Virus record (IMG/VR): IMGVR_UViG_3300011113_000787
Location: 47,269 to 111,268 of that record
DNA length: 64,000 nucleotides
Direction: 5' to 3' (one strand)
Source: a virus
Taxonomy: Duplodnaviria; Heunggongvirae; Uroviricota; Caudoviricetes
Shown: positions 5,989-47,790 of the stretch, piece by piece
Layout of the letters: each line of letters begins with the position of its first letter
Position numbering within the stretch: position 1 is the first letter of the stretch
The notes under the pieces: generated by a model
Databases searched by the model: none
What the model was told of the DNA's origin: nothing
What the model saw: the letters and a program-made list of their open reading frames with translations, nothing else
Translations under genes and position numbers: made by a program

Positions 5989-6147
5989 ATGATTGCTGGT
6001 ATTATAATTTCGTTTATCTTAGCTTTAATTATTTCAATTTTTTGGGTCAGGGGTATTGATTACATGCACAAAAATCATCCTGATTACAAAGGAGAAGACT
6101 TTTTAAATTGGGACAAAGATGAAGACGATGAAAATAACGTTTATTAG
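5989..6147 (+). CDS. small membrane peptide (52 aa), unannotated in ORF track
   Basis: ATG at 5989, one hydrophobic helix IAGIIISFILALIISIFWV, stop TAG 6145-6147; overlaps MPP start by 20 nt. Confidence 0.25.
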   Translation: MIAGIIISFILALIISIFWVRGIDYMHKNHPDYKGEDFLNWDKDEDDENNVY

Positions 6148-6802: not shown

Positions 6803-7281
6803 AAAATGAATCTGTAATTTCAGAACTCAAAAAGTTGAATCCTGATGATTACGTAAAAGTCACCATTGACCTTTATAGAAAGTCGCTACTCGAAATTTGT
6901 TACCACAATGGTTCCAAATTCGATAAAAACTTTTCTTGTGATTCGGAAACTACTTGGAGAGGAGCTAATTTAGTTTGTGAACAATTCAACGTCTCCGAAC
7001 TAATTGAACTCTTAGAATCCAAAGACATAACTGAAATGCAAGACCTTGACTTCCCTGATTTGTCTATAGAGACCTCTACGGACGGCGATGTTGACGTAAC
7101 TAATGTTGAGTGGGACGAACCCTTGACTGAAGAAGAAGAGTCAGAATTCAGTCCTATGGACCTTTATTGGGATTCTGAAATTACAGATTCTGAATTAAAT
7201 TTTGGTACGGGTAGTATTCATACCATGATTATAGAACATAACGATTCAATAATTGCAAAAATTACTGAAAATGAAGATTAA
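6799..7281 (+). CDS. acidic hypothetical protein (160 aa)
   Basis: ATGA overlap with upstream gene; strongly acidic C-terminal half (DEPLTEEEESEF...). Confidence 0.45.
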   Translation: MKNESVISELKKLNPDDYVKVTIDLYRKSLLEICYHNGSKFDKNFSCDSETTWRGANLVCEQFNVSELIELLESKDITEMQDLDFPDLSIETSTDGDVDVTNVEWDEPLTEEEESEFSPMDLYWDSEITDSELNFGTGSIHTMIIEHNDSIIAKITENED

Positions 7282-8642: not shown

Positions 8643-9803
8643 TTACTCAGTTTCACAATTCAAACCAAGAAAATCTTCATCAAAAGATTTTGGTAAACCT
8701 TTCCCTGTATCGTAGACCCAATTTCCACAATCTCTTTTTTTCTCCGCAGGATAGACTAAAATCCCTCCGATATCATAGGATAATAATTTTGAGTATTTGG
8801 CTTGTGAGCTCTTTATTTGAATTGGTACCCATTTGTCTTCAAATTTGACCATTAAATCACATTGAAATGTTATGTCTACAAGATTCCCATATGAAGAAAA
8901 AATTCTAATATTTTCTCTTGGAATACCATTATACAATAAATCACTTAAGAAGTCCCTTTCAGCAGATTCACCTTTTTCTGTAGTCTTTTTGATTCTTTCC
9001 AACATTCTTCTATAATCGTAATCGGATTCTGAATCATCCGCACTTATTAGTAAAGAGAGAACATCTCTGTCGGCTAAACTCAATTCAGGAACTTTTAGTT
9101 TTATTAAATCCCTTTGTTGTGGGCCGTATCCAGATAAATCAACTATATTTTCAATAGGTTTTTCTTTGAAGTAGTTTTTTACCTTTTCTGTAACTGTTCT
9201 CCCCTCCAACTCCCCTTCTACGTCGCTCTTTGCTATTAACTTTATCCAATTTGTATAGTTGGTGTTAATTCTATTGAGTATTGACCAATCGTCTTTTTCT
9301 ATAAATCCAAAAAAATCTCTAGCACCTAATTGTCTAATCAACTTATTACATTCATTCGTGATTGTAGATTTATACTCTCTATCAGGGAAATCAAATTTTT
9401 TTCCTGTGTCCTCGATGTTATTTTTGAAGAACACCAAGTCTCTAACGTTTTGTAGAATCCAACTCCTTTCAGGTTGACCAACCTTGATATTTTTGTTGTT
9501 GTTCAGCATGATTTTTTTGTTACTCCTGATTAGGTCGTTATATGTTTTTGTACCTAATTCTTTAATCAAATCATGAATTTTTTGGTTGGTTCTTATAGAA
9601 TCCAGAATCGATGTGGCGTAGTATTCCTTTTTAAATTGTGATACCGCCTTATTATATTCCGCCTTTGTAATTTTTCCGAAAACTCTTAGTTTACGACCAA
9701 TGTCCTGCAAGGTTATATCAGGTCCCTGATAATTCCTTAGCATTTCATATGTGTCGTATTTTTCCTCTTGCTCCTGTAAAAATTTTCGAATAGAACTTTT
9801 CAT
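8643..9803 (-). CDS. hypothetical protein (386 aa); possible PD-(D/E)xK-like C-terminus
   Basis: Start reassigned to ATG 9803 (TATTTATTACAG upstream; track start 9881 runs through a terminator hairpin). C-terminus VDITF..CDLMVKFEDK is weakly nuclease-like. Confidence 0.5.
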   Translation of the reverse strand: MKSSIRKFLQEQEEKYDTYEMLRNYQGPDITLQDIGRKLRVFGKITKAEYNKAVSQFKKEYYATSILDSIRTNQKIHDLIKELGTKTYNDLIRSNKKIMLNNNKNIKVGQPERSWILQNVRDLVFFKNNIEDTGKKFDFPDREYKSTITNECNKLIRQLGARDFFGFIEKDDWSILNRINTNYTNWIKLIAKSDVEGELEGRTVTEKVKNYFKEKPIENIVDLSGYGPQQRDLIKLKVPELSLADRDVLSLLISADDSESDYDYRRMLERIKKTTEKGESAERDFLSDLLYNGIPRENIRIFSSYGNLVDITFQCDLMVKFEDKWVPIQIKSSQAKYSKLLSYDIGGILVYPAEKKRDCGNWVYDTGKGLPKSFDEDFLGLNCETE

Positions 9804-11180: not shown

Positions 11181-12227
11181 TTATATACCGTACAAAGATT
11201 TTCTAGAATTAAAGAAATTAGTTACTTGAGTTTGACTAATTGCACCATTCCAAACTCTCCATTGTCCAATGTAACCTTTGAAATAACCGTTTGCGCCACC
11301 CAAATATGAATTTGCTGTATCAGGTCTTCCTAATGTTAAAGTTGTTGCTGAAGGATTGGCTTTAACTCCGTTTGTTGTCGAAATTAGTGAACCGTTTACA
11401 TACAACTTGAGATTTCCACTAATAGGGTCGTATGTTAGTACAATATAATACCATGTGTTAACTGAAAAATTTGGTCCTTGAATATATGGGTTAGGTGAGA
11501 AATTATCAGGGTAAACACCACCATTTATTTTTCCTCCAACAAATGCGAGTTGAGCATCATTCCATCCTGTTGGTGGGAATCCACTCCATTCTGCAATCAA
11601 AGTACCGTTCTGTGTTTTAGTTGGATAAGCCCATATCTCATATGTTAGTCCACATGTATCCATATCATTACCGAAACCAGATATTGGTATTACAAATGAA
11701 GTTGTTCCACTCAAGGCAACAACTTGATTTCCATTAAATGTTGCTAACGCATAATCGTTATATAATGTGGCGTTTCTTCCATTACCTGAGATATCCGCCC
11801 AAATGTTACTTGTGATTCCTGTTGTAGAATCTAACTCCATCAGTTTGGATGCCGCACCACAACCAATCCCAAATGAAGTCCAATAACCGTTTGACTCTAA
11901 CCATGTTTTAGCGTCATTTCCTGTGGCAAAAGTTTGAGAAAAATTTGCAATATATTCAGCTAAACTTATGAATGTACCTTCGGTCAAATCCTCAGACCTC
12001 CAAAATTGAACGAATCCTGTTCCTGAAACGGGTAATGGTTGTGTACCTGCAAAGTTCGGATAACCAATCACATAACCCAAGTCTTCATCTGCACCATTTT
12101 TCCAAATCACACCACCATATCCTTCAGATACAGGTAAGTCATTTGTTCCGATTGCTAAATCTCCTATTTGTGTTGTTGCGGATATTGTTGAGCCTGTGTT
12201 ATAGGCGAAAGGTCTTGTTGTTGCCAT
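11181..12227 (-). CDS. tail fibre / receptor-binding-like protein with LamG/concanavalin-like C-terminal domain
   Basis: Shares N-terminal domain MAT(S/T)RPFAYNTGST..FVQFWRS with 10177..11157; C-terminus LKLYVNGSLI...YFKGYIGQWRVWNGAISQTQV is LamG-like. Confidence 0.55.
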   Translation of the reverse strand: MATTRPFAYNTGSTISATTQIGDLAIGTNDLPVSEGYGGVIWKNGADEDLGYVIGYPNFAGTQPLPVSGTGFVQFWRSEDLTEGTFISLAEYIANFSQTFATGNDAKTWLESNGYWTSFGIGCGAASKLMELDSTTGITSNIWADISGNGRNATLYNDYALATFNGNQVVALSGTTSFVIPISGFGNDMDTCGLTYEIWAYPTKTQNGTLIAEWSGFPPTGWNDAQLAFVGGKINGGVYPDNFSPNPYIQGPNFSVNTWYYIVLTYDPISGNLKLYVNGSLISTTNGVKANPSATTLTLGRPDTANSYLGGANGYFKGYIGQWRVWNGAISQTQVTNFFNSRKSLYGI

Positions 12228-12256: not shown

Positions 12257-12823
12257 TTATCCACACTGACCCCAATTTATCACAAGGGTTCCAGTAACTT
12301 GAATAAAGGTTGCTCCATCAGTAATTGTAAATTTTGCACCTACAGGGGGTATTGTGAAAAGTCTATCCCCATAGACATTATCACCTGGTCTCAGTAAATG
12401 AAATGGTTTTGGTGCGTATATTTTTACGTTACTTGGAGTTCCATAATCAATTGACTCACATACATCTTGATACCAATTACCTGTAACTAAATTTTCTATA
12501 AAAACAGGTGTTGGTGTTAATGTTGGAGTTGGTGTATAGGTTGGTGTGGGGGTTGGCGTATGTACTGTTGGGGTTGGTGTAAGTGTTGGGGTTACTGAAG
12601 GCGTTAATGTTGCAGTTGGCGTAGCTGAAGGACACGGTCCAATGATTTCTATTGTTAGAGGGGAACTATATTCTTCTTGTATTAAGTTTTCTGCACAAAC
12701 ATATGCTCTATCTAAAGGATTCAAAGGAGAAACACTTATGATTCCTCCTGTACATCCAGTCCATCTATAATACCCCTCTTCAACGCTGTTATAATTGGTA
12801 ATTTCGTAGTAGTTACACGCCAT
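12257..12823 (-). CDS. PT-linker protein, probable fibre-associated
   Basis: Start reassigned to ATG 12823 (track start 12877 lies inside a terminator hairpin); PTPT repeats; TATTTATAGTT box upstream. Confidence 0.45.
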   Translation of the reverse strand: MACNYYEITNYNSVEEGYYRWTGCTGGIISVSPLNPLDRAYVCAENLIQEEYSSPLTIEIIGPCPSATPTATLTPSVTPTLTPTPTVHTPTPTPTYTPTPTLTPTPVFIENLVTGNWYQDVCESIDYGTPSNVKIYAPKPFHLLRPGDNVYGDRLFTIPPVGAKFTITDGATFIQVTGTLVINWGQCG

Positions 12824-37224: not shown

Positions 37225-37542
37225 TTAATAATATATTGAACAATATGCGTGGAGGATAAGCTCATCGGGAAACCTATATTCAAACCATTTCCTAAATAGG
37301 ATTCCAGTTTCAGCCTGATTCAGGTTTAAATAATTCATAATGGTTAAGAATAGTTGTTGTTTAATTCCCAAGCTATGGTCCACAAATTCAAAGACAAGGT
37401 CTTCATTTTCATCAATCATTTCAAAGTCCCCTTCTTTAGCATTCACATTGGTTGAATCAACAACCTGAAGTTCCCCCACCGTATCAGTGATATACTTATC
37501 AATTATTTTTACAAGTCTACTTTCTGCAATGATATAATCCAT
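37225..37542 (-). CDS. MDYIIAE-family small protein (group A)
   Basis: MDYIIAESRLVKIIDKYI N-terminus; C-terminus FRKWFEYRFPDEL. Confidence 0.5.
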   Translation of the reverse strand: MDYIIAESRLVKIIDKYITDTVGELQVVDSTNVNAKEGDFEMIDENEDLVFEFVDHSLGIKQQLFLTIMNYLNLNQAETGILFRKWFEYRFPDELILHAYCSIYY

Positions 37543-37544
37543 AA

Positions 37545-37790
37545 TTAAAAATTGTGAACCAACTTATAAGTCCATCTAGGATTGGATGGTTTATATATCT
37601 TTCCGTGAAAATTGAACAGGGTTTCTATTGTCTCAGCCAATTCCCTAACTTGCTCAGAAGAAGGAACAGGATATTTTAAATAAATAATCACCTCCCCATC
37701 CTCTATTTGAGCATCATCAACAAAACGTTTTTGTTCCAAAAAACTCAAAACAAGTTTCTCCAATCTGCTCTCACTTATAATATATTTCAT
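37545..37790 (-). CDS. MKYIISE-family small protein (group A); start reassigned to ATG 37790
   Basis: MKYIISESRLEKLVLSFL; GGTATTTATTTTT box immediately upstream of this ATG (track start 37817 lies upstream of the box). Confidence 0.5.
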   Translation of the reverse strand: MKYIISESRLEKLVLSFLEQKRFVDDAQIEDGEVIIYLKYPVPSSEQVRELAETIETLFNFHGKIYKPSNPRWTYKLVHNF

Positions 37791-37869
37791 AAAAATAAAT
37801 ACCCAAAAAAGGGACAATTTTTTCCCAAAAATTTTTAAATGAAAAAACCCCCTTCTTTTCAGAAGAGGG
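37791..37869. repeat. intergenic terminator-promoter cassette, copy 1 (~75 bp)
   Basis: AAATAAATACC...AAAAGGGACAATTTTTTCCCAAAAATTTTTAAATGAAAAAACCCCCTTCTTTTCAGAAGAGGGTC. Confidence 0.6.
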
Positions 37870-37875
37870 TCGTGT

Positions 37876-38172
37876 TTAAACTTCTTTATTCAATTTCATT
37901 TCTTCCCATTCCTCCCTACTGAAAGGGTTATTATAAACCCCACAAATTTCAACGTCCATATATTTTGCAAGATTTCTAACAAATTCATTAACATCCTCAT
38001 AGTTTACGTTTTCCAAATTTTCATCTAAGATACCAAGAAATACTTCATAACATTTGTTACGAGGAGTATAGACATACCCTATACCTGAATCTTCCTTAAC
38101 TCTGAAATCCAAATACATTGGGAATTTATCGAAAAACATTTGTCTTAAAAAGTTCTCAAAACCTTTTTTCAT
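37876..38172 (-). CDS. hypothetical small protein; start reassigned to ATG 38172 (MKKGFENF...)
   Basis: GGTATTTATTTTAT box directly upstream of 38172. Confidence 0.45.
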   Translation of the reverse strand: MKKGFENFLRQMFFDKFPMYLDFRVKEDSGIGYVYTPRNKCYEVFLGILDENLENVNYEDVNEFVRNLAKYMDVEICGVYNNPFSREEWEEMKLNKEV

Positions 38173-38252
38173 ATAAAATAAATACCACCCCGAAAGGACA
38201 ATTTTTTCCAAAAATTTTTAAATGAAAAAACCCCCTTCTTTTCAGAAGAGGG
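38166..38252. repeat. intergenic terminator-promoter cassette, copy 2
   Basis: Near-identical to copy 1 including hairpin CCCCCTTCTTTTCAGAAGAGGG. Confidence 0.6.
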
Positions 38253-38266
38253 TCTTGTTTTAGAAA

Positions 38267-38605
38267 TTACATTTTTGGACTTGTGTCTTGGAGTTGTTCA
38301 AAGGTTGGAAGAGTTACCCCCGTTATTTTCTTTGCTGTTAAATCATCTTGAACAAGCTTGACCACTTGAGGATATAACTGAGCTGCGTCTTTTCCTTCTG
38401 CACCTTTACTTGTGATAATTTGACTTGTTGTCTTATCAATAACTTTTATATCAACTCTACATGAACCATAGAAACAAAACTTTGTTCCCGCAGCCATGTA
38501 CTGTGTATTAGGAGCAGGTTGTTGCGGTTGAGTCTGCTCAGAAAGATTATGCATCCCCAAGATACTTCTTCTTTCTTCTTCTGTAATTATTACTAAGTTT
38601 TTCAT
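38267..38605 (-). CDS. family-B small protein (MKNLVIITEEERRSILGMH); start ATG 38605
   Basis: TATTTATTGAAT box directly upstream. Confidence 0.45.
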   Translation of the reverse strand: MKNLVIITEEERRSILGMHNLSEQTQPQQPAPNTQYMAAGTKFCFYGSCRVDIKVIDKTTSQIITSKGAEGKDAAQLYPQVVKLVQDDLTAKKITGVTLPTFEQLQDTSPKM

Positions 38606-38610
38606 ATTCA

Positions 38611-38672
38611 ATAAATACCAAAATTTTCCAAAAATTTTTAAATGAAAAAACCCCCTTCATTTCTGAAGAGGG
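38611..38672. repeat. intergenic terminator-promoter cassette, copy 3
   Basis: ATAAATACCAAAATTTTCCAAAAATTTTTAAATGAAAAAACCCCCTTCATTTCTGAAGAGGGTC. Confidence 0.6.
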
Positions 38673-38697
38673 TCTTATTTCTAAAATATTTTTTAAT

Positions 38698-38931
38698 TTA
38701 TTTTACAGGTGAACCTTGTGAAGGTGCTGAACAATCCAATCCTATTTTTTGACCGTTAATGATGAAAACCAAATCATCACCCTCAACAACTACTTGAGCT
38801 GTTTTGTTAGGTAATGTATTTAATTTAGCAACTAAATCAGCAGGATTCAAATCCATTCTAAAACCTTCTTTTAAAATTTTTTTGGTTAATCTAACCAAAT
38901 CAGATTCTCTCAATTTTATAGTCTTTGCCAT
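38698..38931 (-). CDS. family-B small protein (KLRESDLVRLTKKILKEG)
   Basis: N-terminal motif; preceded by partial copy 4 of cassette (38945-38992). Confidence 0.45.
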   Translation of the reverse strand: MAKTIKLRESDLVRLTKKILKEGFRMDLNPADLVAKLNTLPNKTAQVVVEGDDLVFIINGQKIGLDCSAPSQGSPVK

Positions 38932-39157
38932 GTTTAAATGTTTTCAATAAATACCTCAAAAAAGGACAATTTTTTCCCAAAAATTTTTTTTGCGTTACTC
39001 AAGGTATTATCCCCCCCAAACTGACGTTTTGTCCTATAGTAAGGGGGGATACGGGGGGAGGGGCCCCCACCTAGGGGGTATACCCCCATGCCGAAGGGGG
39101 GTTATGTGGATAAATAGTTATCCCCACCTCCCCTGTGGATAAATAAATTTGGTTTTG

Positions 39158-39661
39158 TTAAAATGTCGTTTTGTCTTTTCTTGCAAACACGGCGTCTTCA
39201 GGGACCTCCATCTTAGGAGCGAGCCATGACCCCACCACGAACTGTCTATCTTTGCCGAGCTTAAGGTCTTCGGGAATGGCGGGGGACTTAGCAATTTGTT
39301 TCATTGTCTTTTCTATATCCTCTTGTATGTAGTTACTATCTTCACGGGGTACATCATACATGGTTGTGAGATATGCTGTCGAGTAGGCGTATGGGTCGTG
39401 GGTGTGAAGGAATGTATTCTCGGTCCCGAAATAGAATTTCATGTATGAGTTAAGTGGCCACCCCGTCTCACGTTGTAACATGTATGGGTCAATTAGCACA
39501 TTAACAAATATTAAGGCGTATTGGTTTATCTCCTCATCTGAGGGGAGAAGGACATCTATAATCCATGGGAACTCACGTTTAAGAATTTTCTTAATTAGCT
39601 TAAACTCATAGGAGTTTTCCACCTCTTCTTTTGTGACGAATCTTTGGGGGTCATTAAACAT
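39158..39661 (-). CDS. hypothetical protein (167 aa) with FPWIIDV motif; higher GC than surroundings
   Basis: KREFPWIIDVLLP block shared with 15996..16625. Confidence 0.45.
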   Translation of the reverse strand: MFNDPQRFVTKEEVENSYEFKLIKKILKREFPWIIDVLLPSDEEINQYALIFVNVLIDPYMLQRETGWPLNSYMKFYFGTENTFLHTHDPYAYSTAYLTTMYDVPREDSNYIQEDIEKTMKQIAKSPAIPEDLKLGKDRQFVVGSWLAPKMEVPEDAVFARKDKTTF

Positions 39662-39724
39662 GAAAAATAAATTTGTTTAATTGATAAATAGTTTGGACCT
39701 TTGATAATCTAAATCTTAACTAAT

Positions 39725-39859
39725 ATGAAGAAGTTTATTAAAGCTGTGATTATCGGGTACGTTGTATTGTGGGGGGTTCAGTGGATGAAAGACCTTTTCC
39801 GTGATGAGAACATTAACACTTTGGATGACGTGAAGCGTCTGTTGAAGGAGAAGTTATAA
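39725..39859 (+). CDS. small membrane peptide (44 aa), not in ORF track
   Basis: MKKFIKAVIIGYVVLWGVQWM...; ATG 39725 to TAA 39857-39859. Confidence 0.3.
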   Translation: MKKFIKAVIIGYVVLWGVQWMKDLFRDENINTLDDVKRLLKEKL

Positions 39860-40279
39860 CCCCGACATTAGTATTCTGTTTCTACACTCACTTATAATCT
39901 GAGCTGGGGTGATGGACTCGTCTTTTGTATAGAGTCCTTCCACCTTGGCATCTACGCATGCCCATGAGTTAAGACCTATGGGTTTTCTCACATAACCTCT
40001 TTTTGCTTTCTCGAAGTATAGTATACCGAGACTCTCTGTGAGCTCCCCCACCTTGAAGAGTACCTCCACAGATATTCGCTCAGGCGTGATTAGTGTTATA
40101 TCATACGACAGTTTGGCGGATGTATCGACGTTAGTTGATTCCATATACGGTAAAACATAGTTATGGAACATATAAAAATAAAGGGTCCCACTCACACGAT
40201 ATCCACCTGACGATATGTCTGTGTGGATAAAAAAGTTTTCCACACGAGGTTTGGGGATAACTTTTTTTGGAAAAGACAA
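39854..40279 (-). CDS. hypothetical protein (141 aa); N-terminal part overlaps DnaA-box cluster so true start may be internal Met
   Basis: ORF; first ~35 codons coincide with DnaA boxes at 40198-40245. Confidence 0.35.
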   Translation of the reverse strand: MSFPKKVIPKPRVENFFIHTDISSGGYRVSGTLYFYMFHNYVLPYMESTNVDTSAKLSYDITLITPERISVEVLFKVGELTESLGILYFEKAKRGYVRKPIGLNSWACVDAKVEGLYTKDESITPAQIISECRNRILMSGL

Positions 40280-40587
40280 AAAGTCAGGGGAGCTTTAGAT
40301 GGGGGATAATCCCCTCGACCCATTTTCCCCCACTTTTCCCCACCACTCATTCCCACTTTCTCCCACCCATTATGGTCATGGCATACCCTAAAACCCCACT
40401 TTTTCCCTTCTGACGGTATCAGGAGGACCAGTTTTTTACTATGTATATTTCTTAGCAAAAAAAGGAAGATTAAGTATAATGAGCGGGGAGTGAGTGTAAC
40501 GAACCTTTAATATGATTAAATTACCTTCAACGAGATGGACATGTAGTGTCCCATAGTATGGACAATTCATATATGGTGGGTAAATGT

Positions 40588-40740
40588 GGGAGTTAATTAT
40601 ACGATATTTCATTTAATCGTGTGAATACACGATACTCTATTTTATCGTTTCATTTGACGATACTATGGTCATGTCGAAAATATCGTTTCGTTTCATCACG
40701 AAGTGTTGTCTAATGACGATATGATATACATGACCATTAT
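40588..40740. repeat. iteron-like direct repeats (ACGATAyT / TTTCATTT) and inverted TATGGTCATG copies
   Basis: ACGATA at 40591, 40618, 40648, 40705; TTTCATTT at 40597, 40638, 40681; TATGGTCATG at 40371 and 40654, inverted copy at 40719-40729. Confidence 0.45.
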
Positions 40741-40810
40741 ATCACCATCTCACGAGTCCCCTCACTTATGCGGGGGGATAATTAGGGTGGGGTAAGTTTT
40801 ACATTATAAT

Positions 40811-41203
40811 GTGTTTTATGGTGGACATTTTACTACATCTTTATCCTTTTTACGACACATTTGGAAGAATATAGAGTTGTTATATTTCTCCAAAACCCCT
40901 AAAAAAAGTGAGATTTGGAGAAATATAAATGATATATTTATGAGTATGGAAGAAGCTTTCGAAAAGATATTAAATAGTATAGTTGTACCTATGAACCACA
41001 GACTATCAGGTGTGAGGGTAAATAAACATAATCGACTTAAGGGTACTTATGATGTAACTTATTTCTTTAATGATAGAGTTGATTTTCATGATGGTCAGAA
41101 AATACAGATAGAAACAGATAACATGTTTAGATTATTAGGACTTAAGGGAAAGGAAACTTTCATTATTTCATTTGAAAAAGCAGACGATTTCGTAAACATA
41201 TAA
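40811..41203 (+). CDS. hypothetical protein (130 aa), first gene of plus-strand module
   Basis: ORF downstream of origin-like region; start uncertain. Confidence 0.4.
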   Translation: MFYGGHFTTSLSFLRHIWKNIELLYFSKTPKKSEIWRNINDIFMSMEEAFEKILNSIVVPMNHRLSGVRVNKHNRLKGTYDVTYFFNDRVDFHDGQKIQIETDNMFRLLGLKGKETFIISFEKADDFVNI

Positions 41204-41557: not shown

Positions 41558-41938
41558 ATGAGATACATTATAACACAGACGCAGCTTCATACACTTATAT
41601 ACAAGTATTTGGATGAGATGTTCTCTTCACAAGACTTTAGAAAAGAAATTAATCCATACGTTAAAGACGGTAATACTTGGAGGATTAATATGTTTGATAA
41701 TGAAGGTAATGAACTCATGAACTATTTTTGGTTTGGACCAGGTAATTCTTGGGACGACGATGAAGACACTCCTCCACACAATGGTGTTGGTAATCTTCAT
41801 ATCCACCACAAAGTTGTTGATACGTTAAAGAAGACATTCTCCATTAGGGAGAGCAAAGTTCTTGATATTGTTGCTGATTGGGTTAGTGAGACTTTGGGTG
41901 CAGATATTGATGATATTGATATCTACCCTGAAAAATAA
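41558..41938 (+). CDS. MRYIITQ-family small protein (group A, plus strand)
   Basis: MRYIITQTQLHTLIYKYLDEMF. Confidence 0.45.
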   Translation: MRYIITQTQLHTLIYKYLDEMFSSQDFRKEINPYVKDGNTWRINMFDNEGNELMNYFWFGPGNSWDDDEDTPPHNGVGNLHIHHKVVDTLKKTFSIRESKVLDIVADWVSETLGADIDDIDIYPEK

Positions 41939-42773: not shown

Positions 42774-43025
42774 ATGAAGTACATCATAACAGAACAACAA
42801 GCCTCAGAGATTTTTGCTCTCTATAGAAAACTAATTCAGGATGTCTTGGAACAAAAAGATATCTATGTGAAAGATGTTGAAATCACTCCTATATATTTCC
42901 CGAGAGGGTTGAAAGTGATTGTTAAATTGGAAAAAGGTCAAGATAAGGAGCTCGCAAGGAAACTTATTAAAGGTATAGTTGGAAGTCTTTCAGGTTTTGG
43001 TCAAAGAGAAGTTAGTCTCCCTTAA
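42774..43025 (+). CDS. MKYIITE-family small protein (plus strand)
   Basis: MKYIITEQQASEIFALYRKLIQ. Confidence 0.45.
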   Translation: MKYIITEQQASEIFALYRKLIQDVLEQKDIYVKDVEITPIYFPRGLKVIVKLEKGQDKELARKLIKGIVGSLSGFGQREVSLP

Positions 43026-45722: not shown

Positions 45723-45904
45723 TCCTTTTTTTCTTTAGGTATCAACCTAAATGTACAAGCTCTCTTTCCATTTATTGTTGGCATTCCGTACTCATCAACA
45801 CCAATTGTTTTAACTGTAGTCTTCTTGTTTTTGAATCTACCTGTGTAGATTATGTCCCCCACTTTTAGAGGGACATAAATTCCACTGAATTTCTTTTCAC
45901 TCAT
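45719..45904 (-). CDS. hypothetical small protein (61 aa)
   Basis: Overlaps umuC start (ATGA coupling). Confidence 0.35.
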   Translation of the reverse strand: MSEKKFSGIYVPLKVGDIIYTGRFKNKKTTVKTIGVDEYGMPTINGKRACTFRLIPKEKKD

Positions 45905-47109
45905 ACAAATACTTTTGGTATTTCATCCCACGAAGTTGTATACTTTTGAGACATGAAATCTTGTTTCATTTCCCACTCCTTGGTTTTATTTACAGGCGCC
46001 TGAACAAGTTGTATTGAACTTGAAAATAGTGTTGGTTGTTCGATGTTCTCAGGCATAAGGTCGTTAAAGATTATACCACACTTTTTATAGTTTTTCTTTG
46101 AGTTATACATCTTTCTAAGGTGTGGATATACTTGTGACCATATTTGGTCTATATCACGGGTTTGTGATTCAAATTTAATCTGTTTTGAACTATAATGTTT
46201 CTCACCTTTGTGTACATTACCACTCAGAAAGATTGTTGCCCTGTTTGGTGATATCTCATTATCAATAAGTTTCTTTACACCGTTTTTGATGTATGTGTAC
46301 ATCGCTTCAGCAAGTTGGTCAAAGTCATTCACATCTTTACCAAATGAACGAGTTGATGCCACGTTTTTCTTTAACTTCGGGATTGGTTTTACAGGGTGGC
46401 AGTACATTCCGAGTAGTTCGCATTTGGTTCTCAAACCATTCACATTCATCATTCCTCTAACAATAGAATCAGACATCATAACAAACTGTCCAATACTTTC
46501 TACCCCTTGAAGTTTTAACTTCTTTGTCCACTTTCTTCCTACACCCCAAACTTCATCGACAGGTATTGTATAAAGTGAATCTCTGAAATTTTGTAAACCC
46601 CAATACGAACAAACACCATCATAAGATGGTTGTTGTTTTGCCATGTATGACGTAAGTTTGGCGAGTGTCTTGTTTGGACCAACACCAATTGATACAGGAA
46701 TACCAGTAAGTCTTTTGACTTCGTTTCTGATTAGATGTAATCTGTCTTGAAGTTCTTCGTCAGGTATGTTAGAGAAGTCAACGAAACATTCATCGATTGA
46801 ATACACCTCCACTTCGTTCGCATACTTTTTGATTGTGGTCATAACCCTGTCGGACATATCACCATAAAGATTATAGTTGGAAGAGTATACACAGAATCTA
46901 TGTTCGTCCATGAATTCCTTTTTCATAAAGAATGGTTCCCCCATCTTTATTCCGAGGTCTTTGGCTTCTTGTGAGCGAGCAATAACACAACCGTCGTTAT
47001 TTGATAACACGACAGTTGGCCTTCCTATGGAAATAGGATTAAACACTCTCTCACAACTTACATAGAAATTGTTACAGTCAACAATACCAATCTTCTTATT
47101 GGACTTCAT
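45901..47109 (-). CDS. umuC: Y-family DNA polymerase (UmuC/DinB-like)
   Basis: IGIVDCNNFYVSCERVF (D.D.FY.S.E), SIDECFVD, IPVSIGVGPNKTLAKL blocks of the IMS/UmuC family. Confidence 0.75.
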   Translation of the reverse strand: MKSNKKIGIVDCNNFYVSCERVFNPISIGRPTVVLSNNDGCVIARSQEAKDLGIKMGEPFFMKKEFMDEHRFCVYSSNYNLYGDMSDRVMTTIKKYANEVEVYSIDECFVDFSNIPDEELQDRLHLIRNEVKRLTGIPVSIGVGPNKTLAKLTSYMAKQQPSYDGVCSYWGLQNFRDSLYTIPVDEVWGVGRKWTKKLKLQGVESIGQFVMMSDSIVRGMMNVNGLRTKCELLGMYCHPVKPIPKLKKNVASTRSFGKDVNDFDQLAEAMYTYIKNGVKKLIDNEISPNRATIFLSGNVHKGEKHYSSKQIKFESQTRDIDQIWSQVYPHLRKMYNSKKNYKKCGIIFNDLMPENIEQPTLFSSSIQLVQAPVNKTKEWEMKQDFMSQKYTTSWDEIPKVFV

Positions 47110-47476
47110 CTTTATCTAATTTAGGTTTTCCGTGTGGTTTTGGTTTTCCGTTTTCATCAAGTAATACAAACACAATCTTGTCTATTCTAACAATAGATTG
47201 TTTTGTAATTTTATTCCTAACGTCACACGCTATCGTAATTGAACTCGTACCCACTTTAACCATATCCATCCCGAACTCTATGATATCACCAAGAACTGCG
47301 GTTGATACAAAGTTAATCTCAGACATCGCTTTTGTTACAATGTTCGGACTACCGAGTTGGCAGATTGCAAATATCGCAGCCTCTTCATCAATCCATTTTA
47401 GGACCTGTCCTCCAAACAAAGTTCTTCTTGGATTTAGGTCACCTGGCTTTACCAATTTTCTTGTTCTATATTTCAT
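47096..47476 (-). CDS. hotdog-fold acyl-CoA thioesterase-like protein
   Basis: LVKPGDLNPRRTLFGGQVLKWIDEEAAIFA resembles the 4HBT/YciA thioesterase N-terminal block; inserted between umuD-like and umuC. Confidence 0.45.
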   Translation of the reverse strand: MKYRTRKLVKPGDLNPRRTLFGGQVLKWIDEEAAIFAICQLGSPNIVTKAMSEINFVSTAVLGDIIEFGMDMVKVGTSSITIACDVRNKITKQSIVRIDKIVFVLLDENGKPKPHGKPKLDKDEVQ

Positions 47477-47790
47477 ACCTTATTCAATATCCACGAAACT
47501 CTCCCCCATAAATTGGTTTGACCTTCGTACTTTCTTATTTTAAAATGATTAGTTTCGGTTAACACTACAAGGTCACCTTCGACAGGGTCAATAGAACGGT
47601 CTATAACGAGGATATTTCCCGTCTTGACTCCAAGAGTACTTGGACCCATATAACGGAAATAAAACGTCGTATAAGTGTTCTGAATGATTAATTCGTTGAG
47701 GTCTAACCTCTTGTCCACGTACGATTCGGCAGGAGATGCGAATCCTGTGGTTCTTGATTTAATATTTAATTCCTTTGTAGTAGTTTCCAC
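47473..47790 (-). CDS. umuD: UmuD-like (LexA/S24 peptidase family) protein
   Basis: GFASPAESYVDKRLDLNELIIQ closely parallels UmuD GFPSPAADYVEQRIDLNQLLIQ; Ser and Lys of the dyad present (GPST ... FKIRKY). Confidence 0.6.
   Translation of the reverse strand: METTTKELNIKSRTTGFASPAESYVDKRLDLNELIIQNTYTTFYFRYMGPSTLGVKTGNILVIDRSIDPVEGDLVVLTETNHFKIRKYEGQTNLWGRVSWILNKV

Follow-up and report, generated by a model that had tools for sequence, protein, structure and literature searches.

Does a conserved cluster of DnaA boxes in a phage genome mark a replication origin, or does it serve another purpose? The question is raised by a locus near 39 to 40.5 kb of a 64,000-nucleotide stretch of viral DNA (IMG/VR record IMGVR_UViG_3300011113_000787, positions 47,269 to 111,268; the whole stretch is referred to here as the window). 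In this locus, copies of the DnaA-box consensus, TTATCCACA, and of its variants stand in two clusters, A and B, that enclose two conserved genes, ORF93 and ORF167 (ORF, open reading frame; Table 1). A first-pass annotation of the window had proposed an origin that depends on the DnaA protein of the host.

The motifs quoted in that annotation are present. Direct reading as well as a motif search bore out perfect boxes at 39105, 39134 and 40222, the palindromes GGGGCCCC and GGGGGTATACCCCC were found as claimed, and the locus does lie in a GC-rich patch (42% G+C at 39-40 kb versus about 33% elsewhere in the window). One detail had to be amended: the further motif GGGGATAA occurs at 40253, 40302 and 40774, but the site quoted at 39044 reads GGGGATAC, and an extra copy at 39007 had been missed. 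Three of the five perfect copies of TTATCCACA in the window fall within the locus, while 0.94 copies would be expected in 64 kb and none of 100 dinucleotide-preserving shuffles reached five. Finding at least three perfect boxes in 1126 nt has a Poisson p of 7e-7 (4e-5 after correction for the number of windows), and finding at least six sites with no more than one mismatch in 1220 nt has p = 1.3e-5. When one mismatch is allowed, the window as a whole is not enriched (31 sites versus 26 expected). The box signal is one of local clustering, and the enrichment at the locus that the earlier annotation had named as a check is present. The window-wide figure could be taken to mean that AT-rich 9-mers have clustered by chance and have no function. 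However, such a view is at odds with the significance of the local clustering and with the retention of the positions in about 20 diverged relatives, and the conservation data effectively refute it. The two clusters together form an inverted repeat (39112-39142 versus 40236-40266; 31 nt, 77% complementary, 1093 nt apart). Boxes within the locus are spaced 4, 5, 7 and 10 nt apart, and convergent boxes lie 47-49 nt apart in relatives.

Relatives were gathered from IMG/VR with an ORF93 peptide pattern and then with two conserved noncoding strings, of which C6GTATC6 returned 42 stretches, each from a different contig, and the promoter-like 19-mer CTTTATTTTTATATGTTCC returned 27 contigs. The related loci (L numbers) are displayed in the orientation opposite to that of the window. 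As ORF93 relatives reside in viral contigs of 309-321 kb, and the contigs of the related loci L066 and L171 measure 295 kb and 326 kb, the window comes from an uncultivated jumbo-phage family with contigs of about 295-327 kb. The locus occurs once per related contig, including those of 295-327 kb. Perfect copies of TTATCCACA recur in the same slots of relatives whose proteins are only 40-60% identical: one set precedes the ORF93 homologue, and another follows the ORF167 homologue. Within about 2 kb, L008, L009 and L013 carry six perfect boxes each and L010 carries four, with ORF93 proteins that are 44-60% identical to that of the window. In unbiased counts, TGTGGATAA was the most widely shared 9-mer in cluster B (14 of 19 non-redundant relatives) and the top non-palindromic 9-mer in cluster A (15 of 18). 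Across the family, the sites comprise TTATCCACA (56), TTATCCCCA (14), TTTTCCACA (11), TTATTAACA (11) and TTATCAACA (10), so that the exact nine-of-nine DnaA consensus is by far the commonest form (56 of about 100 sites of the TTATNNACA type). The noncoding DNA at about 40145-40535 aligns by blastn even with the most distant relatives, where ORF167 barely does, and for this reason we read it as a phylogenetic footprint. Non-random clustering and the positions kept across a diverged family argue that the boxes are functional protein-binding sites of the DnaA-box type. The positional conservation is a new result, and together with the single occurrence per contig it strengthens the original observation considerably. 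The convergent pair TTATCCACA-N40-56-TGTGGATAA was also sought in IMG/VR, but most of the more than 120 contigs that matched were unrelated, and the pattern was discarded as not specific to the family.

The placement of the sites relative to the genes suggests what they may do. Upstream of ORF93, the 19-mer CTTTATTTTTATATGTTCC and the cTATAcTTA that follows it fit TTTA-N19-TAnnTTTn in an alignment of 17 relatives. The housekeeping promoter consensus of Bacteroidota is TTTG-N19-21-TAnnTTTG, and because of the closeness between the two, we take the element to be a putative promoter. A strict scan for TTTG-N17-23-TAnnTTTG gave 16 matches in the window, which does not settle promoter positions. 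In the family consensus, box 3 abuts the putative -33 element, with boxes 1 and 2 located 60-110 nt upstream, and box 4 (TTATCMACAtg, in six lineages) overlaps the putative -7 element, the transcription start and the ATG of ORF93. Similarly, TTATCCACAtg or TTATCCCCAtg overlaps the ATG of ORF167 in L008, L009 and L011. This placement appears to be an operator geometry, and the same arrangement of boxes is seen at DnaA-repressed promoters such as that of E. coli dnaA. With one box bordering the putative -33 element, another lying across the putative -7 element, the start and the ATG, and a further one across the start of ORF167 in some relatives, operator-type control seems most likely.

We tentatively favor the reading that host DnaA binds the locus, which as a regulatory and architectural array would control the ORF93-ORF167 promoter and the head of the adjacent array of small genes, and which would be a variant of the DnaA-box array of T5-type phages. 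We propose that: host DnaA would bind the two inverted clusters, 1.1-1.7 kb apart, including the variants TTATCCCCA, TTTTCCACA, TTATCAACA and TTATTAACA; a nucleoprotein complex would form over the ORF93-ORF167 promoter and just upstream of the first leftward promoter cassette; this complex would act in an operator-like manner, by repression or timing of the promoters; and the two inverted clusters may bridge to each other. Elsewhere in the window, a fourth perfect box (12257-12265) lies about 30 nt upstream of the ATG of a LamG-domain gene (11181-12227) and adjoins a TATTTAT element, which hints that the same binder may control other promoters.

The binder need not be DnaA. The 9-mers could instead be operators or iterons for a phage-encoded DNA-binding protein (ORF93 or ORF167 regulating itself, or a factor encoded elsewhere), with the identity to DnaA boxes being coincidence or mimicry. 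Every site in L014, L015 and L186 has been replaced by TTATCAACA or TTATTAACA, a concerted change that is expected if a phage protein and its sites co-evolve; two conserved genes of the phage lie between the sites, and initiator or repressor genes are often enclosed by their own sites in this way; and the palindrome, the TGACA pairs and the iterons must have binders other than DnaA anyway. However, ORF93 and ORF167 revealed no Rep/winged-helix, initiator or recognizable DNA-binding fold, and the predominance of the exact DnaA consensus weighs against such a protein. Variants are mixed within single genomes (L156, L148 and L189), which fits one binder with graded affinities. Moreover, the T5-like phages of enterobacteria, although unrelated, show the same range of variants with the same flanks, and massive TTATCCACA arrays in other viral contigs point to a shared host protein. 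Taken together, the dominant exact consensus, the mixed variants, the likeness to T5 in variants and flank, and the arrays in unrelated contigs favor DnaA. The binder is thus probably DnaA, and a phage-encoded protein appears unlikely.

The arrays just mentioned show that DnaA-box arrays recur in viral contigs. Dense tandem runs of perfect TTATCCACA were seen in L086 (12862-13339; IMGVR_UViG_3300043009_000020), L132 (185-366), L030 (5976-6116), L045 (1936-2119) and L081 (5380-5570), all of which are unrelated to the window. In L086, about 480 nt contain 23 boxes, of which 22 share one strand, and their context is a/cTTATCCACAg. What is repeated in tandem in the huge arrays of such unrelated contigs is aGTTATCCACAg. 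Such arrays may be DnaA sponges or origins.

Several points weigh against an operator bound by DnaA. The promoter assignment leans on a Bacteroidota consensus that is matched only in part. Cluster A is rearranged in the window and in its closest relative, L001: box 3, the -40 box, is degenerate (GGTGGATAT in the window) and displaced by an insertion of about 14 nt, and a perfect box occupies the slot of box 2. Cluster B, which follows ORF167 at a distance of about 120-150 nt from the next promoter, does not occupy a classical operator position. The sites of L014, L015 and L186, being only of the TTATCAACA or TTATTAACA type, violate the stringent E. coli consensus TTWTNCACA, so that their binder may not be DnaA. 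Finally, a cluster found once per contig, with palindromes and iteron-like repeats around it, is also reminiscent of the origins of plasmids and phages.

At a host-DnaA-dependent origin, DnaA would oligomerize on both clusters and recruit a helicase after opening DNA close by, either at a stretch such as the 13-nt AT run by box 3 or with the aid of transcription, and the repeats and palindromes would bind accessory factors. In line with this, the boxes are clustered in both orientations, conserved and present once per related contig; two clusters flanking a gene recall the bipartite oriC of Bacillus subtilis and Helicobacter pylori and oriR of P1; the spacings of the iteron-like repeats (10, 23 and 43 nt) are roughly in helical phase; and the site lies between divergently transcribed small genes. 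However, a nearest-neighbor stability scan of the window found no extended AT-rich unwinding element adjoining the boxes, which together with their surroundings fall in the 0-10th percentile and thus count among the most stable parts of the window. A single AT stretch, the 13-nt run inside the 19-mer, touches a box, and the nearest AT-rich stretch (39650-39725) is unexceptional for a genome of 33% G+C.

A DnaA-trio is defined as (NAN)n with n of at least 3, the consensus 3'-GAT-5' and a distance of 0-16 bp, typically 10-13 bp, from a box (PMC8287927). The strand complementary to CTTTATTTTTATA, adjoining TGTGGATAA, carries a formal (NAN)x4 pattern, TAT-AAA-AAT-AAA, which falls within this permissive definition and may speak for an origin. 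However, its spacer is 1 bp, its match to the consensus is poor, it lies inside the promoter-like 19-mer, and such a pattern is expected by chance at 33% G+C. There is no skew switch at the locus either. Within the 64 kb, the minus-strand blocks to the left and right have GC skews of -0.116 and -0.122 (p = 0.84) and do not differ in AT skew (p = 0.22). Cumulative GC skew follows gene orientation, and its minimum in the window is not at the locus, where the first-pass annotation had suggested looking for it.

Replication genes are likewise missing from the surroundings. No initiator, helicase or primase was detected among 50 Pfam-scanned ORFs, which included nearly all of those of at least 85 amino acids (aa) within about 10 kb, and a PHROGs scan of 10 ORFs agreed. 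A tblastn search of the window (E up to 10) with domain IV of E. coli DnaA found no homologue. Similar arrays in T5 have, in addition, been judged unlikely origins (see below). What remains of the proposed host-DnaA origin is thus a set of non-random, clustered and position-conserved boxes, whereas an unwinding element, a skew switch, replication genes within about 10 kb and a Rep fold were not found and the geometry is operator-like instead. Firing from the complex is conceivable but rather doubtful, as nothing in the sequence points to it beyond the boxes, their single occurrence and the iteron-like repeats. The accompanying suggestion of a phage-plasmid found no support: the related contigs measure about 320 kb, and neither par nor rep genes turned up.

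The closest known analogue of the locus appears to be the pre-early DnaA-box repeat region of T5-type phages. In T5-like phages (n = 25), the untranslated repeat regions of the first-step-transfer DNA hold eight conserved DnaA/DnaA* boxes, TTATCCACA, TTATCAACA, TTATTAACA and TTATCCCCA (Davison 2020, 10.1101/866236). These boxes form two inverted-repeat blocks, 1.8-4.3 kb apart, among palindromes and direct repeats by the pre-early genes, and the noncoding repeat DNA is better conserved than the ORFs there (10.1101/866236). T5 origins map elsewhere, the boxes were judged unlikely to be origins, and a role in stopping injection was proposed without proof (10.1101/866236). When we read the T5 sequence (AY587007; sites at 6045, 6118 and 9358-9431), we found the same variants and the same AAG...CTT flank as in our locus. 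Shared features are thus: the consensus and variant boxes with their flank; two inverted-repeat blocks with 1-4 kb of small genes between them; palindromes and direct repeats around the blocks, with noncoding DNA better conserved than neighboring ORFs; and the proximity of small genes with strong promoters and terminators. The two regions nevertheless differ in several respects. There is no sequence homology (no megablast match to GenBank phages), and short motifs alone are in common. In T5, boxes on the same strand are paired at a distance of 3 bp and the spacer is always 52 bp, whereas the boxes of the locus are 4-10 nt apart, with a convergent pair at 47-49 nt. The boxes of the locus also contact start codons and a promoter-like element, and two conserved genes lie between their clusters. 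The terminal repeat is where the T5 region is found, whereas the locus is internal in 317-321-kb contigs, whose start may be arbitrary. Host phylum and phage lineage are also different.

The likeness to the first-step-transfer repeat regions in motifs, inverted blocks, palindromes, direct repeats and neighboring small genes with promoter and terminator cassettes would also suit a cis-acting signal for DNA handling, either a site for injection stop or membrane anchoring (T5 iss-like) or a packaging or terminus-proximal signal. In addition, five of the 11 sub-genomic related contigs (L001, L008, L011, L012 and L016) end inside the locus or within about 1.6 kb of it. These ends were considered as a genome terminus and rejected, as they fall at different nucleotides and are better explained by assembly breaks at repeats and homopolymer tracts. 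Furthermore, the iss model still lacks proof in T5, the window revealed neither a terminase gene nor a terminal repeat, and the locus is interior in the 317-321-kb contigs mentioned above. We consider a DNA-handling signal improbable.

Three other kinds of systems invite comparison. Iteron-type replicons with DnaA boxes include P1 (oriR/incC-repA-incA), pSC101, F and RK2. Like them, the locus combines DnaA boxes with short direct repeats, has inverted repeats at a putative promoter and places clusters of binding sites on both sides of a gene, but the enclosed proteins of 96 and 167 aa lack the winged-helix Rep fold, there is no clear AT-rich region, and the genome is that of a phage of about 320 kb rather than a plasmid. 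DnaA-repressed promoters of E. coli are those of dnaA itself (autoregulation), nrdAB and mioC, and datA is a DnaA-titrating locus. As in these cases, boxes stand at or next to a core promoter and transcription start, which are putative in the locus, and a high-affinity cluster occurs without an unwinding element, although the phage locus carries far more elaborate accessory motifs and its regulation is putative. Bacterial oriC (B. subtilis incAB-dnaA-incC; H. pylori oriC1-dnaA-oriC2; basal unwinding system, PMC8287927) likewise has several high-affinity boxes facing both ways, with a cluster on either side of a gene and boxes that overlap a promoter, but the locus has no dnaA gene, no convincing module of DnaA-trio and unwinding element and no skew switch, and its surroundings are GC-rich. 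DnaA-box "origins" reported in other phages rest on Ori-Finder predictions only.

Table 1. Features of the locus, ordered from high to low coordinates, as the family consensus is read along the minus strand of the window; numbers in the last column give the family order
Feature	Position	Strand	Remarks	Family consensus
Third GGGGGGATAAT element	40771-40781	+	First rightward gene probably starts at 40940, about 160 nt downstream	
Further conserved noncoding DNA, GACCAGTTTTTTACTATGTATATTTCTTAGCAAAAAAAGGAA...	40411-40535		blastn to distant relatives reaches about 40535; terminator-like hairpin and sigma70-like match	
Iteron-like direct repeats GGTGGGGAAAAGTGGG, four copies	40319-40410	-	Spacing 10, 23, 43 nt; 16-nt repeat, 81-100% identity; 3-5 copies in relatives	1: conserved leader DNA, then iteron-like GGTGGKAAAAGTGGG, 3-5 copies
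Perfect palindrome GGGGGATAATCCCC, right copy	40301-40314		Its 9-mers in 17 of 18 relatives	2: palindrome GGGGATWATCCCC
TGACA pair GACAAAAAGTCA	40275-40286	+	Motif scan and family alignment; family consensus TGACATTtTGACA	2, continued: TGACATTnTGACA
Cluster A of box-type sites	40199-40260	both	Motif search and family consensus	3: AACCAAA-N5-(a)AG-TTATCCACA (box 1), about 10 nt, TTTTCCACA (box 2), GACAnnnnGTCA
TTATCCCCA, one mismatch	40252	-	Cluster A	
TTTTCCACA, one mismatch	40236	+	Cluster A	
Perfect TTATCCACA	40222-40230	-	Cluster A	
TGACA-type pair GACATATCGTCA	40208-40219		Inside cluster A	
ATATCCACC, two mismatches	40199	+	Cluster A	
ORF93 promoter-like element: 19-mer CTTTATTTTTATATGTTCC (40165-40183) and TAACTATGTTTTA (40151-40163)	40151-40183	-	Nearly invariant in 17 diverged relatives	4: TGTGGATAA (box 3) fused to nearly invariant CTTTATTTTTATATGTTCC, then cTATAcTTA
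ORF93/96, conserved small protein, invariant core YFEKAK..KP..WACVDAKVEGLY	39854-40144	-	First cassette gene; true start 40144	5: TTATCMACA (box 4) over ORF93 ATG in six lineages; ORF93, variable spacer, ORF167
Hydrophobic 44-aa ORF	39725-39859	+	Variable cassette spacer; relatives hold similar or other inserts	
ORF167, conserved protein without assigned fold	39158-39661	-	Second gene of the cassette enclosed by the box clusters	
Perfect TTATCCACA preceded by AACCAAA-N5	39134-39142	-	Cluster B	6: cluster B (39105-39142), AACCAAA-N5-TTATCCACA, TGGGGATAA, TTATCCACA
TTATCCCCA, one mismatch, inverted	39118-39126	+	Cluster B; 4 nt after first box; TGGGGATAA kept in L001, L011 and others	
Perfect DnaA-box consensus TTATCCACA	39105-39113	-	Cluster B; slot kept in relatives	
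Conserved C/G-tract block, minus strand CCCCCC-tt-cGGCAt-GGGGG ... CTCCCCCCGTATCCCCCC	39043-39101		C6GTATC6 once per contig, 42 IMG/VR contigs	7: C/G-tract block ending CTCCCCCCGTATCCCCCC
Palindrome GGGGGTATACCCCC	39074-39087		Within C/G-tract block	
Palindrome GGGGCCCC	39060-39067		Within C/G-tract block	
TGACA/GTCA pair GACAAAACGTCA	39022-39033	-	Kept as GTCAGAATGTCA in relatives	7, continued: GTCAGAATGTCA
GGGGGGGATAAT, left copy of palindrome GGGGATWATCCCC	39007-39017		Full palindrome GGGGGATAATCCCC in several relatives, e.g. L013, L148, L154, L156	7, continued: GGGGGATAAT(CCCC)
Leftward promoter cassette, first copy (AAAAATTTTTGGGAAAAAATTGTCC...GGTATTTATT)	38955-38995	-	Directly downstream of the array; repeats at 37810, 38194, 38962; follows the array in all relatives	7, end: leftward promoter cassette

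Besides the boxes, the locus concentrates several other motifs. It holds four of the seven GWCA-N4-GWCA matches in the window and five of the eight copies of GGGGATAA, and three of the seven copies of AAAGTGGG fall within the iteron-like repeats. Canonical four-tract patterns for a G-quadruplex or i-motif occur only twice in the 64 kb, at 39043-39078 (GGGGGGATACGGGGGGAGGGG...GGGGG) and 40311-40341, both in the locus. The three top G4Hunter scores of the window lie at 39039, 40772 and 40319, with the C/G-tract block scoring highest. The pattern at cluster B is conserved in 18 of 19 relatives and that at cluster A in two of 18, and the idea of a symmetric pair of G-quadruplexes or R-loops was dropped because of the latter count. 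A structured RNA in the C/G-tract block was rejected as well, as folds of either strand were no better than those of shuffles (z = -1.7 and -0.9) and the homopolymer tracts give no readable covariation. Farther to the right, ACGATA/TATCGT occurs six times in 150 nt (40598-40745) together with a 28-nt inverted repeat (40659-40686/40716-40743), and a perfect 15-nt inverted repeat (40880-40894/40914-40928) stands just before the probable ATG at 40940. Parts of the 40598-40928 region are conserved in L002 and L010.

The anatomy of the locus also departs from the earlier description, which had placed it between a minus-strand and a plus-strand gene block. The interval is not a gap, since it holds two conserved minus-strand genes and a small plus-strand ORF, and the rightward block extends for only about 3 kb before minus-strand genes resume at 44.1 kb. 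What stands is a noncoding divergent region at about 40145-40939, with the first rightward gene probably starting at 40940. The start listed for ORF93, which would give 141 aa, lies too far upstream, as most of 102 homologues have 86-96 aa. A mobile or invertible cassette bounded by inverted repeats was considered and rejected: order, orientation and genomic place are the same in all relatives, and Pfam scans found no recombinase gene within about 10 kb.

To the left of the array, the leftward cassette at 38955-38995 presumably drives the small gene at 38698-38931. In all, four tandem cassettes precede small minus-strand ORFs at 37545-38995; in three of them, a terminator hairpin that is nearly the same each time (GACCCTCTTCnnnnGAAGGGGGTTTTTT) accompanies a promoter-like element (AAAAATTTTTGGRAAAA...TATTTAT), and the fourth (38955-38995) consists of the promoter-like element only. 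This region looks like an array of strongly expressed early genes. Paralogous small proteins are encoded on both sides of the locus (37225-37542, 37545-37817, 41558-41938 and 42774-43025; also L009 7630-7965), which have the N-terminus M[KRD]YII[TSA](E/Q)(S/T/Q)(R/Q)L in common and belong to no Pfam family. Several relatives carry a reverse-strand ORF between ORF93 and ORF167, which in L009 (6347-6769) has an HExxH motif. This ORF adjoins about 120 nt of noncoding DNA that form a strongly conserved block (…agcctacctctgatttcttcagctgaca…cccgcccgttctacactcccgcttcgaacaatacaaagg; L009 6780-6935, L008 1131-1270, L010 6810-6940, L011 about 880-960, L002 about 7010-7100), which may be a new noncoding RNA or a leader of ORF167. 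Both ORF and block are missing from the window, and neither has an Rfam match.

The window has a low G+C content and many densely packed small ORFs. No tRNA genes were found in its 64 kb. Rfam searches revealed no family at gathering scores over the whole window, nor at E up to 1 for the locus and L009. GenBank phages gave no match to 38-42 kb by megablast, nor to ORF167 or a clamp-loader-like ORF by tblastn, and there is no cultured relative from which annotations could be transferred. Gene content includes phage-type lysis and peptidase functions as well as several auxiliary genes. Among those unusual for a phage (49511-53017, 60977-63508 and 1813-2919) are genes for a UDP-galactopyranose mutase and two GT2 glycosyltransferases, an 843-aa outer-membrane protein resembling SusC/TonB-dependent receptors, and a PPK2 polyphosphate kinase. 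A translesion-polymerase module (45901-47790) consists of a umuD-like gene (Peptidase S24, 47473-47790) and umuC (IMS family, 45901-47109), separated by a thioesterase gene. Lipoprotein signals, a domain architecture of the SusC type and one motif match in a Flavobacterium metagenome-assembled genome weakly suggest that the host is probably a member of the Bacteroidota (Flavobacterium-like). That match, the only one from a scan of genome contigs with the C-tract motif, came from an "uncultured Flavobacterium", was at a different locus and is therefore only a weak hint of the host.

Signals for replication initiation and early control in jumbo phages are essentially unmapped, and the locus provides a concrete, testable handle on them. 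It also carries a lesson for annotation, as motif counts alone are insufficient to call clusters of DnaA boxes in phages origins. If the locus were an origin after all, it would be one without a conventional unwinding element, and it could serve as a cloning module in Bacteroidota, a group in which genetic manipulation is difficult. A broader and decidedly speculative possibility is that unrelated large lytic phages (the T5-like phages of enterobacteria and this family of about 320 kb, probably of Bacteroidota) have converged on recruiting host DnaA to a noncoding array beside the genes expressed first. Two versions of this can be envisaged: the array, the four-tract C/G block and the iteron-like repeats might form a DnaA-gated switch that couples early transcription to the start of replication, a new type of origin or timer without a classical AT-rich unwinding element; or the array might anchor or sequester DnaA during host takeover. 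The tandem TTATCCACA arrays, with up to 23 boxes in 480 nt, might belong to the same broader strategy. If DnaA does bind, the replication initiator of the host would be wired into the early program of a phage of about 320 kb, and a long-unresolved observation in T5 would extend to a second, unrelated group of phages, which would argue that DnaA-box arrays have some general function among lytic phages.

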